Source of the DNA: Giardia intestinalis
Lineage: Eukaryota
Strand: one strand, 5' to 3'
NCBI GenBank assembly: GCA_000002435.2
Contig: CM018793.1
Length of the DNA: 64,000 nt
In this document: positions 24,663 to 30,572 of the stretch, piece after piece
Layout: the number at the start of each line of letters is the position of its first letter
How positions within the stretch are numbered: the first letter of the stretch is position 1
The notes under the pieces: generated by a model
What the model was told of the DNA's origin: nothing
Seen by the model: the letters and a program-made list of their open reading frames with translations, nothing else
The model's database searches: none
Made by a program: the position numbers and the translations under genes

Positions 24663-26336
24663 TCAATACTTAGGAGACCACTGGGTATCCCTCAGCTGGG
24701 CTAGCAGCTCAGTGTCAGAGGACGGAAGTATGCGACGGGACTGTCCCTGCTTTTCGGCGATACGGATAAGTCCAAGGGCGCACTGGCACGAAATCTCGCG
24801 GATTTCATCCAAATCTGGAAGAAGCTCGCCTCTGCGGAGCTTTTCTTCTGGGACCATTTGCGCTAGAGCCCCAGAAACCCCGGTAATCATCTCGTCAGTG
24901 ATCTTCTTTGCCCTACAGACATATGCCCCCAAGCCGATCCCTGGGAAGACATAGAAGTTGTTGCACTGCGCAGGCTGGATTGTGGTACCGTTCGGAAGTG
25001 TGAGGCTCGGCATAGGGCTGCCAGATGCATAGTATGCAGTGTTGTTGGTGTACTCCATGCACTCTGCAAAAGTGCACTCACACTTCTCAGTAGGGTTAGA
25101 AAGCGCAAGAACGATTGGCGGCTGGCCAGTTGGGAGGCCCTCACACATTGTCTCAAGAATCTCACGTGTGAAGGATTTCCCCACTGTCGAGAGCCCTAGA
25201 AGGCACGTGGGCTTGACTGCCTTGATGACACTCAGCAAAGTTGTGTGGCCCTTGATAGAAAGGTCGTGACGCACATACGGAAGCTTATGTCCGGGCATAG
25301 TCCCATTCACAAAGTCATCTCTATCTGCTGTCAGCAACCCCTGGGAATCTATCACGTAGAACTGCTTGCGGGCCTGTTCAAGCGTGTATCCCTCACTTAC
25401 CGAGAGAGACGCTATGTTATCTGCGACACCAATTCCGCCGGCTCCAGCACCGAACATAACATACACCTGTTCTGACGCTTTGGCTGTCCTATTCATCTTC
25501 AGAGAAATAGCACGGAGTCCTGCAGCAATGGTGGCTGCAGCAATACAGCCTGTGCCCTGAATATCGTCGTTGAACACAGGGCCAGCATCGCGGTGCTTCT
25601 TTAGCAGTGTAAAGGCAGTGTCATTAGAGAAATCTTCGAATTGGAAGATGCAGTCTGGCCACTTGGAGTGCACGGCCTCAATCGTCTCCTTGATTATCCC
25701 GTAGTACGTGTCGTCCTTGTTCCGCTTCTCTGGGATGCCGAGATAATGAGGATCTTCTCTGATCTTGTCCGTGTTACACCCAAAGTCAAAGGAAATCGGC
25801 AGTGTATGCTCCGGTGCAAATCCCCCGCCCAATGAATAGAGGGTAAGCTTCCCGACACAAATCTGGTGGCCACCCGTTCCCAAATCTCCTAACCCAAGAA
25901 TGCGTGTTCCATCGGTCGCAACGATGATGCGTGGGCTATAGGGCCATTGGTCAAAGATCTGCTTGACTTTGCCGAGATGGGTGCGGTTCAGATAGAAGCC
26001 GCGAGGATAGCCCTGCCAGAGAAGTGAGTAGTTGGAGCAGGCAGTGCCCACTGTAGGGGTGTAGACGATGGGGAGAACCTCCTTCAGATACTTCAAACAA
26101 AATCCAGAGAAAAGGGTTTCATTAACCTCCTGAAGACGGGTCAAGTAGAGCCACTTTTCGGTGGGCGTGGTGAGAACATCAAATTGTGCGCGGCATCTGC
26201 TGATTTGCTGCTCAATCGTCTCCACTCTTGCTGGAAGGCGCGCAACAATGTGGTGAGCCTCTCGCTCTGCAGCAGTGAAGGCAGTATCCTTATTGCAGTC
26301 CTTGTTGCGCAGCACAGTGGAAATAGTTATGGGCAT
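24663..26336 (-). CDS. NADP-dependent malic enzyme (malate dehydrogenase, oxaloacetate-decarboxylating)
   Basis: Malic-enzyme signatures are present: VYTPTVG, FNDDIQGTG, the GAGAGGIGVA dinucleotide-binding motif and LSNPT. It is a full-length 557 aa with an ATG start. Confidence 0.92.
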   Translation of the reverse strand: MPITISTVLRNKDCNKDTAFTAAEREAHHIVARLPARVETIEQQISRCRAQFDVLTTPTEKWLYLTRLQEVNETLFSGFCLKYLKEVLPIVYTPTVGTACSNYSLLWQGYPRGFYLNRTHLGKVKQIFDQWPYSPRIIVATDGTRILGLGDLGTGGHQICVGKLTLYSLGGGFAPEHTLPISFDFGCNTDKIREDPHYLGIPEKRNKDDTYYGIIKETIEAVHSKWPDCIFQFEDFSNDTAFTLLKKHRDAGPVFNDDIQGTGCIAAATIAAGLRAISLKMNRTAKASEQVYVMFGAGAGGIGVADNIASLSVSEGYTLEQARKQFYVIDSQGLLTADRDDFVNGTMPGHKLPYVRHDLSIKGHTTLLSVIKAVKPTCLLGLSTVGKSFTREILETMCEGLPTGQPPIVLALSNPTEKCECTFAECMEYTNNTAYYASGSPMPSLTLPNGTTIQPAQCNNFYVFPGIGLGAYVCRAKKITDEMITGVSGALAQMVPEEKLRRGELLPDLDEIREISCQCALGLIRIAEKQGQSRRILPSSDTELLAQLRDTQWSPKY

Positions 26337-26458: not shown

Positions 26459-27637
26459 TTATTTGACAAAGTAGAGAGAAAAGGCAACAACCAGACCCGC
26501 GAGAGAAAACGCGTTCCCTACGATGTGCACCACAATTTGGTCCGTGACGTCTACAGGCCATGTCCTGGGCCAGCTACGGAGAGCCAAAAACATCAGAAGC
26601 GATGCATACCCTTTACGAGACGTCACAAATGGGAAATTATTAGACAAAAAGTCCACGACTCGCTGGATGTTAAAAGCGTAGAGGAGGACAGAAATAAGGA
26701 TAAAGAGATAGAATAGCAGCTCAAACCAAAAGTTTGGTGAACGCCACCCGCCTCGGCCAACCAATATTATCAAAATGTAGGCAACCAGTGTGAATGTAGC
26801 GCCTAAAATCAGCAAAAATGCCACCATCTTGGAGATATCCTCTGGGTCTGTCAGTGGACCGTATTTAGAATCAATGTGGTAGGCCTTGATGCTTTTCCCC
26901 CCGGTTCTGCTACGCTCCGCGCGGTCACCCCTGCCCCTCTCGTTCTGCAGAGAGTCACGTCTCCTACGTCTGGCTCGGCTATCATAGATCTCCGAACCAG
27001 TATGGCTGCTGTAGCTATGTTCAGCACCGCTATCTGACCGTGACCTGGAGCTAGTGTTGCTGTGCTCACTCTCATCGACGCGCCGCCTTCTGTGGTCGGC
27101 CTCGCGCTCGTGAGATCGAGTATGATTTCTGTCACGACTGCGACTGCGTTCATAATCATAATCGTGGCCGTGGTCACGATGATAGCTTCGTTCACGGTCC
27201 CTGCCCCCACTTTTAGATCTATCTCTGCGTCTATCCTCATTGTGGCTGTATGCTTGGCTGTTCGCTAAGCTTCCCGAATGACTGCTATGACGAGAGCTGT
27301 GATGGCTCGAGTAAATGCTTCGCCCGTAATCGTCGTAATCTCTGTCCCTAGATTTTGATCTTGACCTAGATCTGCTGAGTGAGACAGAATCTGCGTGGTA
27401 GTCCCTGTGACGGTTGGAGCCATAACCATCGGGCATGCTATACTGCCCATGGCTATGGTGTGTACCTCTGTGGCCTGGGCTGGGCTCAAAGGAGCGATCG
27501 GCTGGGTAACGGGTGATCCCACTTGCGTGCCTCTGTCGCCCGGCTGTCTGCGATCTTCCAGGGTGCTCACTATAGAAGTCACTTGCCGTGTGCCTCCTGT
27601 CGTATGGACTCAAGGCCCACCGTCCGCTGCTTGACAT
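26459..27637 (-). CDS. Arg/Ser/Asp-rich (RS-domain-like) protein with a C-terminal membrane domain of about 4 TM helices
   Basis: The N-terminal 250 aa or so are RS/RD/RE/SR dipeptide repeats (SRSRSRSKSRDRDYDDYGRS, RSRSRDRNHTRSHEREADHRRRR). The C-terminal 140 aa hold hydrophobic helices (MVAFLLILGATFTLVAYILIILV, LLFYLFILISVLLYAF, LLMFLALRSW, FSLAGLVVAFSLYFV). ATG start. Confidence 0.7.
   Translation of the reverse strand: MSSSGRWALSPYDRRHTASDFYSEHPGRSQTAGRQRHASGITRYPADRSFEPSPGHRGTHHSHGQYSMPDGYGSNRHRDYHADSVSLSRSRSRSKSRDRDYDDYGRSIYSSHHSSRHSSHSGSLANSQAYSHNEDRRRDRSKSGGRDRERSYHRDHGHDYDYERSRSRDRNHTRSHEREADHRRRRVDESEHSNTSSRSRSDSGAEHSYSSHTGSEIYDSRARRRRRDSLQNERGRGDRAERSRTGGKSIKAYHIDSKYGPLTDPEDISKMVAFLLILGATFTLVAYILIILVGRGGWRSPNFWFELLFYLFILISVLLYAFNIQRVVDFLSNNFPFVTSRKGYASLLMFLALRSWPRTWPVDVTDQIVVHIVGNAFSLAGLVVAFSLYFVK
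26887..27550 (-). repeat. Coding low-complexity RS/RD dipeptide repeat region inside the RS/TM gene
   Basis: The repeats are visible in the translation. Antisense low-complexity shadow ORFs (26851..27240, 27062..27268, 27265..27582, 27395..27634) arise from the same repeat. Confidence 0.6.
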
Positions 27638-27743
27638 GAGGTCGGAAGTGTTTGCTATGCCCTACTAAACTTTTGGCCATTTTTATTAAAATATTAGACA
27701 TTTAGTATGTTATCCCACAAATTTTGGCAGTCCAAAATCTCCT
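27638..27743. promoter_or_regulatory. AT-rich bidirectional promoter region between the RS/TM gene and centrin
   Basis: A 106-bp divergent spacer containing TTTTTATTAAAATATTAGACATTTAG and CAAAATCTCCTATG next to the centrin ATG. Confidence 0.4.
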
Positions 27744-28229
27744 ATGGCACGCAAACCAAACGCTCGATCTACAGAGCCTGACTTGACAGAAGAGCAGAAG
27801 CACGAGATTCGGGAGGCCTTCGACCTCTTCGACTCCGATGGCTCCGGCCGAATAGACGTCAAGGAGCTCAAAGTGGCGATGAGAGCCCTTGGATTTGAAC
27901 CCAAGCGGGAGGAGTTGAAGAGAATGATCGCAGAGGTGGATACGTCTGGCTCTGGGATGATTGACCTTAACGATTTCTTCAGGATAATGACTGCCAAGAT
28001 GGCGGAGCGCGACTCGCGAGAGGAGATCCTCAAGGCTTTCAGGCTTTTTGATGAGGACGACACCGGAAAGATCTCGTTCAAAAACCTGAAAAAGGTCGCC
28101 AAGGAGCTGGGAGAGAACCTTACTGACGAGGAGATCCAGGAAATGATCGACGAGGCAGATCGCGACGGCGACGGCGAGATCAACGAGGAGGAGTTCCTCA
28201 GGATAATGCGCCGCACGTCCCTCTATTAG
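27744..28229 (+). CDS. Centrin/caltractin, an EF-hand calcium-binding protein
   Basis: There are four EF hands ([55 protein letters not shown]). The 161 aa align end-to-end with centrins. Confidence 0.93.
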
Positions 28230-28253: not shown

Positions 28254-30572
28254 TTAGAGGGCTAACAGCTGCGAGACCTTCACCCGCTTTCCGCAGCAGT
28301 CGCACGGGCATGTCGGCTCGTCCTCCTCAGAGCGGAAGCACTCGCGGCTTGGTGGGCGCATCGCATCGAGTTTCTCCTGGAGCTTTCGCCTGTTCTTCTC
28401 TGCAATCTGCGCCTCCATGTCCTTGAGCATCTGCTCTCTCACAGCACGCTCGTGCTCTGCACGACATCGTCTCTCGTTTGCTGCGTCCTCTAAGTCTTTG
28501 AGGTATGCAGCCATGTCGTCAGCCTCCTCTTTGGCGCGCTGAAGCTTATCACGCATCCGCTTTGCCGTAGCATCACGCAGAGCTGTGTCTCTAACGTCCT
28601 CTGCTTCCCTGCGCTTACGGGCAAGGATAGCCTCGATGTCCTCCGGTGGAAGGGCCGAGCCCATGTCATAGTAGTCCGGTATGCGAGCATTAGCAAATTC
28701 GGGAAGGTTGTACTCAGCCAGCTGACGGTCCAGAAGCTCCTTCTGCAGTCTCTTCTTAGCCTCCTCAGAGGCCTTATCAAACTCTCGCCGCAGAGCCTCC
28801 TCTTCCTGAAGAGCCTTGGCATACTCGATGTCCTCAAGGCGGCTGCGCTTCTTCTCGCTTTCCTTTGCCTGCTGCTTAGCCGTGAAGTCTCTGATAAAGT
28901 CTTGCATGCTCTGCTCGGCAGCCTCGCGTCTCTTCCTCTCAAGCTCCGGATCGTTATCGAACAAAACAGGCATCGGCTGAATGCTTCCTTCAGAGAGGTT
29001 GTGGCCAGCACGGCGCCACCGCTTGTATGCATCGTAAAGCCTGTCTGCTTGATCTTTATTGTATTCGTAGTGCGATCTGTCGCGTTCGTAAGCAGCCCGC
29101 TTCCTTGCCTCCTCCTCGCGGCGCGCCTCTTCTGCTTGGCGCAAAGCCTGCTCTGTGAACTCCTTCTTTTCACGGGCAATACGCTCTGCGTTAGCCTTAC
29201 GCTTTGCCTCCATCTCCTTCTTGGCGGCACAACTAAAGCAAATCAGTCCACGGAACGGCCTTGTAACAGAAGCGGTCGATGGGGTGCCGTGGACGCGAGA
29301 ATTAATATATGCATCCCGCGCCTTGTCCAGCTCATCGTGGAGAATCCGCTCATATACCGGGCCATACTCTAAGTGTGACCGAACAGGTGGCTTGAATGTC
29401 TTACAAAAGTCACGCGTGAACTCTTCTGCCCTTGTGCGGAAAAGTTCCTCGGCAGTTACACCTAGTGGACGGGTCCCTGAGACGGAGAGAGGAGTCTTCA
29501 CCTCTGAGGCAACGAGCTGGGTTGCAGATCGCGAGAGGGGCTTCTGTGAAACCTCAGGCACAGAGTCAGACATTGCTGGTGGAAGCATGCCAGTGTTGTC
29601 AAGCGTGACCCCCAGAGCGGGTTCCTGCATCATCGTTTCTTCGTGGACGCCTTTAGAGACGGTGCTGGCCGGTCTATCGGTGGCTCCAAAACTTCGCACA
29701 GACATACCCATGTCGTTTCTATTGGACATCAGCATGAGGAGGGTGTTCTCATCAACGCGAGGAGTCCCCGGTCTTGAGCCTTGTCGTGACTGTCTTTGGG
29801 ATGGGGGCAAAGAATCAACCCGGAATGGTGTGTTAAGACTGAACGGTTTCTGCTGCTTGTTAACTGGTCTGACTGTGCTTTCGTGATTAAGAACGTTGCC
29901 AAGAGAACCCATGGACCCCGGGCGCCCGTTGGTCAGAACGTTGTTTGCCCGCGGAGTCATTGTACGGGAAAACGGTCCCTGTGCCGCGGCCTTTGCGGTT
30001 GCGTCGTATGGTCGTGTTGTTGCCATTGTCACGTCCATCGTCTCGCTGGAATCTTTCGGTTCCGGCCACGGATGGCGATAAGTCGGCTCTCTGTGAGGTA
30101 GGGATGGATGCATGTTGAACTTGTAACACCTGGTTCGGCGGTCAAAGACCAAATTCCCAAGGCCTGGGAGCTGCAGGTTCACCCGCTGTGCCCTCACGCG
30201 TATAGCGTCGCCTAGCTCCTGGAAAACAAACTGCAGAAGGGTCTTCGCATCATGGCGGGACGCTGTGGAGAAGTCCGTGTAGCACACTTGCCTTATTGCC
30301 GAAGGAACCATATGCTCGTCTGTCTCACAGCGAATGTTGTTATTTCGCACAAAGGTCTTAGTGAACCGTGCCGTTGGTTTACCTTTCGCATTGAATGAAA
30401 AGACGGCAAACGGCGGAATGTCTGTTGAGCAGTTATCGTTATAATTGTAAACAACTTGCGCACACAGGTCGCGCCAGACCTTGGTGATTTCGTCAGCTGT
30501 TGCGGTAATGAAAGGTTTCTGCAAAACCAGCGCAACCATGTCGCTATTACCATACTCCGTAACAGTCGTCAT
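28254..30572 (-). CDS. Coiled-coil protein with a globular N-terminal domain (CCDC81-like) and a long Glu/Arg/Lys-rich coiled coil, ending in a Cys cluster CPCDCCGK
   Basis: The N-terminal 150 aa are non-repetitive. The C-terminal 300 aa are an EEARREEEARKRA...RREAEDVRD coiled coil. The terminal motif is TCPCDCCGKRVKVSQLLAL. ATG start. Confidence 0.6.
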   Translation of the reverse strand: MTTVTEYGNSDMVALVLQKPFITATADEITKVWRDLCAQVVYNYNDNCSTDIPPFAVFSFNAKGKPTARFTKTFVRNNNIRCETDEHMVPSAIRQVCYTDFSTASRHDAKTLLQFVFQELGDAIRVRAQRVNLQLPGLGNLVFDRRTRCYKFNMHPSLPHREPTYRHPWPEPKDSSETMDVTMATTRPYDATAKAAAQGPFSRTMTPRANNVLTNGRPGSMGSLGNVLNHESTVRPVNKQQKPFSLNTPFRVDSLPPSQRQSRQGSRPGTPRVDENTLLMLMSNRNDMGMSVRSFGATDRPASTVSKGVHEETMMQEPALGVTLDNTGMLPPAMSDSVPEVSQKPLSRSATQLVASEVKTPLSVSGTRPLGVTAEELFRTRAEEFTRDFCKTFKPPVRSHLEYGPVYERILHDELDKARDAYINSRVHGTPSTASVTRPFRGLICFSCAAKKEMEAKRKANAERIAREKKEFTEQALRQAEEARREEEARKRAAYERDRSHYEYNKDQADRLYDAYKRWRRAGHNLSEGSIQPMPVLFDNDPELERKRREAAEQSMQDFIRDFTAKQQAKESEKKRSRLEDIEYAKALQEEEALRREFDKASEEAKKRLQKELLDRQLAEYNLPEFANARIPDYYDMGSALPPEDIEAILARKRREAEDVRDTALRDATAKRMRDKLQRAKEEADDMAAYLKDLEDAANERRCRAEHERAVREQMLKDMEAQIAEKNRRKLQEKLDAMRPPSRECFRSEEDEPTCPCDCCGKRVKVSQLLAL

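Follow-up and report, generated by a model that had tools for sequence, protein, structure and literature searches.

The gene GL50803_88888 of Giardia intestinalis WB lies on the minus strand at 26459..27637 of the window, which is the whole stretch of 64,000 nucleotides from contig CM018793.1 that was analysed. The original placement of an open reading frame here agrees with the ORF list, and the frame is a complete CDS of 392 codons plus a stop codon (26459..26461). The product matches XP_001707578.1 (UniRef A8BE33) exactly and is annotated as hypothetical, with nothing more. No paralogues of the gene were found within the 64-kb window. As predicted, its divergently transcribed partner is centrin (27744..28229, plus strand), and the two ATG codons are separated by an AT-rich intergenic region of 106 bp (27638..27743) that is common to both genes. 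In the other lineages the two genes are similarly spaced, 105-109 bp apart, and the element AAAGTTT(A)G occurs there. A malic enzyme gene is located downstream of GL50803_88888.

Uninterrupted orthologous ORFs are found in four Giardia lineages (L001-L003 and L005). They share a conserved MAS/MSS start from which the frame is open in every lineage, and every indel between them is a multiple of three. In the lineage comparison pN is 0.20-0.23 in the N-terminal region, against a saturated pS of 0.71-0.82, and 0.10-0.13 in the C-terminal region. The downstream methionines M68 and M271 are not kept across lineages, and M271 is replaced by I or T elsewhere. It had been considered that the arginine- and serine-rich (R/S-rich) region might be a repeat in the 5' UTR, but the open frame, the multiple-of-three indels, the pN far below pS and the unconserved downstream methionines show that this region is coding. 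The entire ORF is thus coding and the gene is genuine. A reading in which the R/S-rich region is untranslated, either as 5' UTR or as a spurious extension, and in which the true product is a membrane protein of ~120 amino acids starting at M271, could draw on gene calls of 118 and 122 amino acids in public collections, including several metagenome calls in the range 118-122. However, these short calls start at non-ATG codons and come from prokaryote-style callers that also call overlapping out-of-frame ORFs. This reading is extremely improbable in view of the open frame and the substitution and indel patterns, and it was rejected.

Peptides from GL50803_88888 are listed in a published encystation proteome (Faso 2013, Table S2), at a low level and in 3 of 12 samples. 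The R-rich tail yields very short peptides on tryptic digestion, which is a probable reason for the low detection by MS. The protein does not appear in the supplements that could be searched from four other proteome and interactome papers, including organelle and secretory/endocytic sets, and no mention of the gene ID was found in the main text of the literature. In sequence databases the gene is affected by an artefact in which prokaryote-style gene callers split it into a 118-amino-acid membrane fragment and spurious out-of-frame ORFs.

The claimed richness in R and S of the N-terminal ~260 amino acids was borne out, with 20% S, 19% R, 9% D and 9% H in residues 1-260 and a combined R+S content of 39%. 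The description of this region as almost pure RS/RD/RE/SR repeats was overstated. RS and SR dipeptides account for 14-15% of the residues, and for at most 26-28% in any window of 50 amino acids in all lineages. RS occurs 14 times, where shuffled sequences of the same composition give 10.0 +/- 2.6 (p = 0.085), while SR, RE and RR dipeptides occur at the shuffle expectation, and the longest RS run is SRSRSR(S/R). The R/S pattern is a compositional bias and not a repeat array, because Tandem Repeats Finder detected no tandem repeats in the DNA of the gene. Residues 1-262 are predicted to be disordered (pLDDT 31-53 in AlphaFold2 (AF2) models, in agreement with a charge-hydropathy plot), and 16 of these 262 residues are aliphatic or aromatic. 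This tail of ~30 kDa has a pI of 10.3 and contains the histidine-bearing stretches HSSRHSSHSGS and HRDHGHDYDY.

A basic disordered tail could bind the acidic tails of tubulin, which would make the protein a linker between membrane and microtubules at the disc, the axonemes or the median body. The conserved gene order of a CCDC81-like gene, centrin and GL50803_88888 loosely suggests the same. However, gene order is generally conserved between close Giardia lineages and eukaryotic neighbours are seldom functionally linked. The pairing with centrin is known from close lineages, and the contig of the most distant relative (L004, see below) does not take in the centrin side. A role as microtubule linker is very unlikely.

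GL50803_88888 is organised in three parts, a conserved head, a variable linker and a C-terminal membrane domain, in which 59%, 25% and 67% of the positions, respectively, are invariant among four lineages. All features described below are on the minus strand. Part I (residues 1-134, 27236..27637) is a disordered head rich in S, H, R and Y (pLDDT 31-35) with conserved islands, and it has remained conserved despite the saturation of synonymous sites. One island of 20 residues, FYSEHPGRSQTAGRQRHASG (residues 21-40, 27518..27577), is identical at 20 of 20 positions in the four lineages and holds a candidate RxRxxS site of basophilic-kinase type (RQRHAS). Further along the head is a short RS run, ADSVSLSRSRSR (residues 82-93, 27359..27394), which alone among the RS stretches is kept in all lineages.

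Part II (residues 135-260, 26858..27235) is a variable, arginine-rich linker of mixed charge with RD, RE and RS pairs. In every lineage its charged fraction is 0.45-0.47, its net charge per residue is +0.07 to +0.09, and it has 15-23 adjacent pairs of opposite charge. The linker is prone to in-frame indels of 3-18 nt, and one of these is an expansion of DRDR that distinguishes two of the lineages (L002 and L003). An RRRR patch (residues 183-186, 27080..27091) is invariant in the four lineages and may be an NLS-like basic patch, whereas a second poly-R stretch (residues 223-227) is not conserved. The RxRxxS site, the putative SRPK substrate and the NLS-like RRRR are all pattern matches of a kind that low-complexity sequence yields easily.

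Part III (residues 261-392, 26462..26857) consists of a juxtamembrane PLTDPEDIS motif and the membrane domain, and AF2 models it with helices. The last ~130 amino acids are hydrophobic and helical, and their hydrophobicity, insertion energies and AF2 helices fit membrane helices. Helix 1 (residues 272-294, 26756..26824) has a Kyte-Doolittle peak of 2.76 and an approximate insertion energy of -4.0. Helix 2 (residues 303-323, 26669..26731; approximate insertion energy -0.8) carries a conserved E306, which is Q in L004. It is followed in the AF2 model by a short amphipathic helix, IQRVVDFLSNN (residues 324-334, 26636..26668), of which QRVVDFLS is invariant within the G. intestinalis lineages. The short hydrophobic helix 3 (residues 341-356, 26570..26617; AF2 helix 341-354) is a candidate span that fails the insertion-energy scan in every 19-residue window, and its 13-16 residues are too few to classify. 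The signature of the family, WPRTWP[VI]D[VM]T (residues 356-365, 26543..26572), is identical in all G. intestinalis lineages and retained in L004, and it precedes helix 4 (residues 367-390, 26468..26539; approximate insertion energy +2.1), which contains an invariant G374-N375. Helices 1, 2 and 4 are all present in the AF2 models. Of the about four transmembrane helices that had been predicted, two are therefore clear spans and one is moderate, while the fourth is too short, giving a count of 3-4. Both the count and the topology are insecure because the AF2 models have low confidence (pLDDT 62 and 44 in two runs).

The strong conservation of the membrane domain, including WPRTWP, the G-N pair and the E/Q in helix 2, suggests from sequence comparison a role beyond anchoring. 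The membrane domain could be the functional core of the protein, for example as a subunit of a small oligomeric channel, a transporter or a membrane-shaping complex, with a regulatory or metal-binding tail. It is the most conserved part of the protein (67% invariant and with the lowest pN), its intrahelical polar residues and WPRTWP loop are kept in L004 at 32-34% identity, and the tail is rich in His and Asp (9% His). Even so, we regard a membrane domain as functional core as unlikely.

Relatives were found in Giardia and in one divergent, syntenic Giardia-like contig (L004), and in no other organism by sequence or fold searches. The L004 contig encodes a membrane domain of 32-34% identity, an upstream in-frame stretch with 31% R+S and, downstream, a malic enzyme. 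The architecture is thus maintained in this distant relative.

In Pfam the full-length protein had no domain hit at E<=1, and the membrane domains of four family members shared no consistent hit at E<=10. No sequence-profile or fold match to the membrane domain was found in PDB. When 5.8 billion proteins were searched by word index, neither a single sequence nor a profile brought up a relative of the membrane domain outside Giardia, and a HMMER profile run exhaustively against 1.84 billion representatives gave nothing beyond Giardia and Giardia-like sequences. In a scan of JGI metagenomes there were 333 pattern matches, none of which was confirmed by tblastn. Described families with four helices (MARVEL, COPI_assoc/TVP15, PRA1, tetraspan and others) had no significant match in Pfam, HMMER or the profile-seeded word search. 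A suspected resemblance of the FPFxTSRxGY segment to COPI_assoc/TVP15 was dropped, as Pfam gave no such match at E<=1 or E<=10.

When the N-terminus was searched separately, the Giardia orthologues were the only hits, and no RS-domain protein was found at E<=0.01 among the 5.8 billion sequences. The sole sequence match of the tail in PDB was a weak one to the RD repeat of NELF-E (E about 1e-3). This match was judged to be compositional and homology to NELF-E was rejected. Judging from these searches, GL50803_88888 is restricted to the genus Giardia and resembles no known family.

GL50803_88888 is tentatively seen as a Giardia-restricted, membrane-anchored and probably phospho-regulated tether or scaffold that binds polyanions and faces the cytosol or nucleoplasm, a reading that we hold with somewhat less than even confidence. 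The tail is placed on the cytosolic or nucleoplasmic side because there is no signal peptide and because ~260 highly basic, unfoldable residues precede helix 1. The C-terminal domain would insert into the ER-derived membrane system, and the mixed-charge linker, with its net positive charge, could bind polyanions in a multivalent manner, whether nucleic acids (RNA, DNA), acidic lipids or the acidic tails of proteins. The invariant islands may be specific sites for docking or phosphorylation. Among these, the RxRxxS site in the 20-residue island would be a phosphorylation site and the conserved SLSRSRSR run a possible substrate of the single SRPK of Giardia (GL50803_17335), which has been retained despite a near-absence of splicing (PMC3218828). 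Phosphorylation might then toggle the binding of the tail on and off. If the tail is a substrate of SRPK, this would give the retained kinase a role other than splicing.

The membrane in which such a tether would reside can be read in several ways. GL50803_88888 could be an inner nuclear membrane (INM) protein and a functional analogue of the lamin B receptor (LBR), and its R/S-rich tail would then hold chromatin or RNA at the nuclear envelope of the lamin-less Giardia. Entry could resemble that of yeast Heh1/Heh2, with an NLS and a long disordered linker passing through the pore. A basic disordered tail of ~30 kDa ahead of the membrane helices, the conserved short RS run, the invariant RRRR ~85 residues upstream of helix 1, the retained SRPK and the weak match in composition to NELF-E, a nuclear protein, at its RD repeat are all consistent with an INM location. 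However, the protein is homologous neither to LBR, LEM/HeH or SUN nor to any other family of the nuclear envelope, the RS content is well under the norms for RS domains, the poly-R stretch at 223-227 is unconserved, and basic disordered tails are equally typical of RNA- or ribosome-binding membrane proteins of the ER. An LBR-like function at the INM is rather unlikely. A more specific version, an INM protein invented in Giardia whose mixed-charge tail tethers chromatin or RNA and whose binding is switched by phosphorylation at SRSRSR and RxRxxS, is considered quite doubtful.

The tail might instead recruit mRNA or ribosomes to the cytosolic face of the ER membrane, as in p180/RRBP1 or LRRC59. 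The pI of 10.3, the Arg-rich mixed-charge disordered region and an anchor that lacks a signal peptide agree with this, and the ER would be the default destination. On the other hand, the protein has no similarity to the p180/RRBP1 or LRRC59 families and is absent from the supplements of secretory/endocytic organelle proteomes, and the conservation of islands in the N-terminus points to specific protein partners more than to generic RNA binding. Recruitment of RNA or ribosomes at the ER is decidedly unlikely. No observation made here speaks specifically for the nuclear envelope as against the ER or another membrane.

Giardia has very few known proteins of the nuclear envelope or with organelle-tethering functions, and the majority of its lineage-specific "hypothetical" proteins have not been studied. 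For GL50803_88888 there is now a verified full-length CDS, a three-part architecture, an invariant island, the WPRTWP signature and candidate regulatory sites. If it is perinuclear, the protein would be a case of convergence on an LBR-like arrangement in a eukaryote without lamins, and an INM tether with a phospho-switched tail would offer a reason for SRPK being retained in an organism with almost no introns and two lamin-less nuclei. If it is a plain membrane protein of the ER or of vesicles, GL50803_88888 is an ordinary orphan gene. It is of modest interest and a reasonable candidate for tagging, and not a discovery.

Of the suggested likeness to LBR, the architecture of GL50803_88888 itself stands, with a disordered, basic, R/S-rich N-terminus and a polytopic anchor, but no Tudor or ERG4/ERG24 domain was found in Pfam (E<=1 and E<=10). 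LBR itself combines a Tudor domain with an ERG4/ERG24 sterol C14-reductase domain of 8-10 helices and about 400 amino acids. In both proteins a basic N-terminal region with a short RS run precedes the polytopic membrane domain, and the tail of GL50803_88888 is predicted to lie on the cytosolic or nucleoplasmic side. The short RS stretch, SLSRSRSR(S), is conserved in four lineages and is a low-information feature. In contrast to LBR, the membrane domain here measures 130 amino acids, has 3-4 helices and is without relatives outside Giardia, the tail has no sequence similarity to that of LBR, and residues 1-262 contain no Pfam domain and are predicted to be disordered. The comparison with LBR is an analogy only.

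SR proteins have one or two N-terminal RRM domains, and an RS domain is defined as at least 50 amino acids with more than 40% RS/SR content. GL50803_88888 has similarly disordered R/S-rich sequence with a conserved SRSRSR run that is predicted as a possible target of the Giardia SRPK. It differs in its RS/SR content, at most 26-28% per 50 amino acids compared with the >40% that defines RS domains, in having no RRM (Pfam, E<=1) and in being membrane-anchored. By its predicted domain content GL50803_88888 is neither LBR nor an SR protein, since it has no Tudor, RRM or sterol-reductase domain.

In other eukaryotes, arginine-rich mixed-charge domains (R-MCDs) associate with RNA and with acidic partners and direct proteins to condensates (PMC9324279; bioRxiv 10.1101/771592). 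Residues 135-260, with a charged fraction of 0.46 and a slight net positive charge, resemble the R-MCDs of NELF-E (the RD repeat) and U1-70K and fall within this group, which is a compositional class and not a homologous family. The resemblance is compositional, and the R-MCD proteins known so far are soluble and nuclear, unlike the membrane-tethered GL50803_88888. To our knowledge, nuclear speckles have not been established in Giardia.

In yeast Heh1/Heh2, an NLS, a long disordered linker and a transmembrane segment are necessary and sufficient for accumulation at the INM (PMC4695851). GL50803_88888 has the same succession of basic patch, disordered linker and membrane helices. However, it has no LEM/HeH or MAN1 domain in Pfam, the linker from RRRR (183-186) to helix 1 (272) is only about 85 residues, and RRRR is a candidate NLS. 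p180/RRBP1 and LRRC59 combine a single-pass anchor with a long, highly basic, low-complexity cytosolic region. Their sequences have no similarity to GL50803_88888, and their single-pass anchor differs from the 3-4 C-terminal helices found here, but the combination of a membrane anchor with a basic low-complexity region is shared.

GL50803_88888 encodes a membrane protein that is conserved and expressed and carries a long, basic, disordered tail. The 392-aa ORF (26459..27637, minus strand) has a product identical to XP_001707578.1 (UniRef A8BE33) of G. intestinalis WB and is already in databases as an unstudied protein, with no annotation beyond 'hypothetical protein'. Its neighbours are malic enzyme (24663..26336, minus strand) and centrin (27744..28229, plus strand); with centrin it forms the divergent pair described originally, separated by a 106-bp AT-rich spacer. 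An AAAGTTT(A)G element is conserved about 25-35 nt upstream of the ATG. WB has an out-of-frame upstream ATG (AAAAATGGCC) about 41 nt 5' of the start codon (27638..27700, minus strand), and a functional uORF is improbable because the other lineages lack this ATG and have AAAAAGTGA or AAAAAGCGA there.

On the far side of centrin, a 772-aa CCDC81-like ORF (28254..30572, minus strand) gives weak, sub-threshold matches to both eukaryotic HU domains of CCDC81 (E 5e-4 and 2e-3; 20.4 and 18.4 bits, cutoff 26.1). Its long C-terminal half is rich in E, R and K and is probably a coiled coil. Because CCDC81 is associated with the centrosome and cilium in other eukaryotes, this ORF may encode a divergent basal-body protein beside centrin. 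The two adjoin in four contigs from other Giardia lineages (L001-L003 and L005), and the lineage carrying the orthologue P0012 has the same gene order: CCDC81-like, centrin, GL50803_88888 orthologue and malic enzyme.

The earliest relatives to be found, 118 aa long, spanned only the membrane domain, which raised the alternative, considered in the original prediction, that the R/S-rich region is non-coding and that the protein starts at a downstream Met. This alternative is rejected. L001, L002 and L003 each have one frame that begins at a conserved MAS..WALSPY and reaches the C-terminus uninterrupted, while stops fill the other frames, and all indels in the nucleotide alignment are 3, 6, 9, 12 or 18 nt. 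The N-terminal part has a pN of 0.20-0.23 against a saturated pS of 0.71-0.82 (pN in the membrane part is 0.10-0.13), and the internal M68 and M271 are not conserved in the other lineages, which therefore cannot make the membrane domain alone. Two gene calls cover the full length (P0010, 387 aa; P0012, 394 aa). GL50803_88888 is listed in an encystation proteome, where 3 of the 12 samples each gave three peptide identifications; this is weak but direct evidence at the protein level (Faso et al. 2013, PMC3877021, Table S2).

The short gene calls of the orthologue are artefacts. Prokaryote-style callers split the gene (L001 1860..2989; L002 1857..3022; L003 1811..2988, as read on the contigs) into a 118-aa membrane fragment with a non-ATG start and two spurious ORFs (98-122 aa) that are out of frame, and such fragments stand as separate 'proteins' in public collections (P0001, P0002, P0006 and P0007). 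Several further ORFs of 68-129 aa lie across the R/S-rich coding sequence, in other frames (26851..27240 and 27265..27582, minus strand) or on the opposite strand (27062..27268 and 27395..27634, plus strand); stops break them in other lineages, and the biased codon composition accounts for them.

Residues 1-262 contain 20% S, 19% R, 9% D, 9% H, 8% G and 6% Y. To describe this region as almost pure RS/RD/RE/SR repeats is an overstatement: there are 14 RS dipeptides against 10.0 +/- 2.6 in same-composition shuffles (p = 0.085), and SR, RE and RR counts equal the expectation from such shuffles. In every lineage RS/SR dipeptides cover 14-15% of the N-terminal residues and at most 26-28% of a 50-aa window, and the longest RS run is SRSRSR(S/R). 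The nomenclature of SR proteins sets an RS domain at >40% RS over at least 50 aa, and an RS-repeat domain in that sense is rejected. Tandem Repeats Finder found no tandem repeats in the DNA. Given the low RS content and lack of a DNA repeat, the region is low-complexity sequence rich in R, S, D and H, in which a single short RS run is conserved.

A four-lineage alignment with sub-region scoring divides the protein into three parts. Part I (residues 1-134) is S/H/R/Y-rich and 59% invariant, with a 20-residue block, FYSEHPGRSQTAGRQRHASG, identical across all four lineages and smaller conserved islands (TRYP, HAD.VSLSRSRSR, RDYDDYGR and SGSLANSQ.YSH). Part II (residues 135-260), 25% invariant and indel-prone, is an arginine-rich mixed-charge region whose charged fraction (0.45-0.47) and net charge per residue (+0.07 to +0.09) are constant across lineages; neighbouring residues of opposite charge form 15-23 pairs in it, and the RRRR at 183-186 is invariant. 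The sole match of the whole profile among solved-structure sequences was the Arg-Asp repeat of NELF-E (E about 1e-3), read as compositional. A 12-nt in-frame insertion encoding DRDR (window-equivalent about 27130..27160) separates L002 from L003, otherwise nearly identical alleles (pS 0.01-0.02, zero amino-acid substitutions) from the same sequencing project (ERR33333xx), and shows that the mixed-charge linker undergoes ongoing length polymorphism. AlphaFold2 gives residues 1-262 a pLDDT of 31-53, consistent with disorder.

Part III (residues 261-392) starts with a conserved PLTDPEDIS and is 67% invariant. AlphaFold2 models, both of low confidence (pLDDT 62 for the isolated domain, 44 at full length), place helices at 265-293, 301-321, 324-334, 341-354 and 367-390. 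Helices 1 (-4.0), 2 (-0.8) and 4 (+2.1) are supported by a rough scan of insertion energies, in which helix 341-356 is too short to pass, so that the about four transmembrane helices first proposed become a predicted 3-4 spans.

Searched exhaustively with an HMMER profile of the membrane domain, 1.84 billion representatives gave matches in Giardia only, plus P0011 (E = 1e-12) on an 873-bp metagenome contig, L004 (ERZ14208471; GC 51.5%). Upstream, the P0011 frame runs on through another R/S-rich stretch (31% R+S); after P0011 comes a malic-enzyme N-terminus whose identity, judged by eye, is roughly 60%. With a membrane domain 32-34% identical to the Giardia orthologues, P0011 is a syntenic orthologue whose Giardia-like source organism is much more divergent. 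Invariance out to P0011 is limited to a WPRTWP[VI]D[VM]T loop, a G-N pair in helix 4 and a small number of further residues. No NCBI-sourced proteins clustered with it, and neither a profile-seeded search of 5.8 billion proteins nor a JGI metagenome scan gave further relatives. The N-terminal region alone retrieved only Giardia orthologues, and Pfam gave zero matches at E<=1 and none consistent at E<=10. With no relatives outside Giardia and this Giardia-like organism, both halves are orphan sequences and, as far as can be seen, confined to the genus.

Because the protein lacks a signal peptide and its first helix comes after 260 highly charged residues, the tail would stay on the cytosolic or nucleoplasmic face. 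Arg-rich mixed-charge domains elsewhere bind polyanions in a multivalent, charge-driven manner (PMC9324279; bioRxiv 10.1101/771592), and the linker may behave likewise. The invariant islands could be specific docking or modification sites: RQRHAS matches the basophilic-kinase pattern RxRxxS and is a candidate site, and the conserved SLSRSRSR run, a type of sequence that SRPKs phosphorylate, is a candidate SRPK substrate. Giardia has one SRPK, GL50803_17335, and its retention despite very rare splicing suggests other functions (Manning et al., PMC3218828). The predicted face of the tail, the putative polyanion binding and the candidate kinase sites together tentatively favour a phospho-regulated membrane tether or scaffold, at somewhat less than an even chance; the architecture is held with much higher confidence than this mechanism. 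A nuclear-envelope location would be compatible with the NLS-disordered linker-TM logic demonstrated for yeast Heh2 (PMC4695851). An ER RNA/ribosome receptor or a cytoskeleton linker fits about as well, as does a function centred on the membrane domain, where strong conservation may warn of a role beyond that of an anchor.

The original observation is partly confirmed, with the R/S-rich tail and the membrane helices upheld and the RS-repeat wording lost. The original interpretation, which drew on the lamin B receptor (LBR), is partly supported: it holds as architecture, with a putative function by analogy. GL50803_88888 is a well-defined tagging candidate rather than a surprising finding. Identity with LBR is rejected because both the Tudor and the ERG4/ERG24 domains are missing, and identity with SR proteins because the RRM is missing and the RS content is too low; LEM/MAN1 identity is likewise rejected. 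What it has in common with these proteins is only an architectural theme, a membrane anchor bearing a basic disordered tail, and GL50803_88888 appears to be that known theme built from orphan parts.
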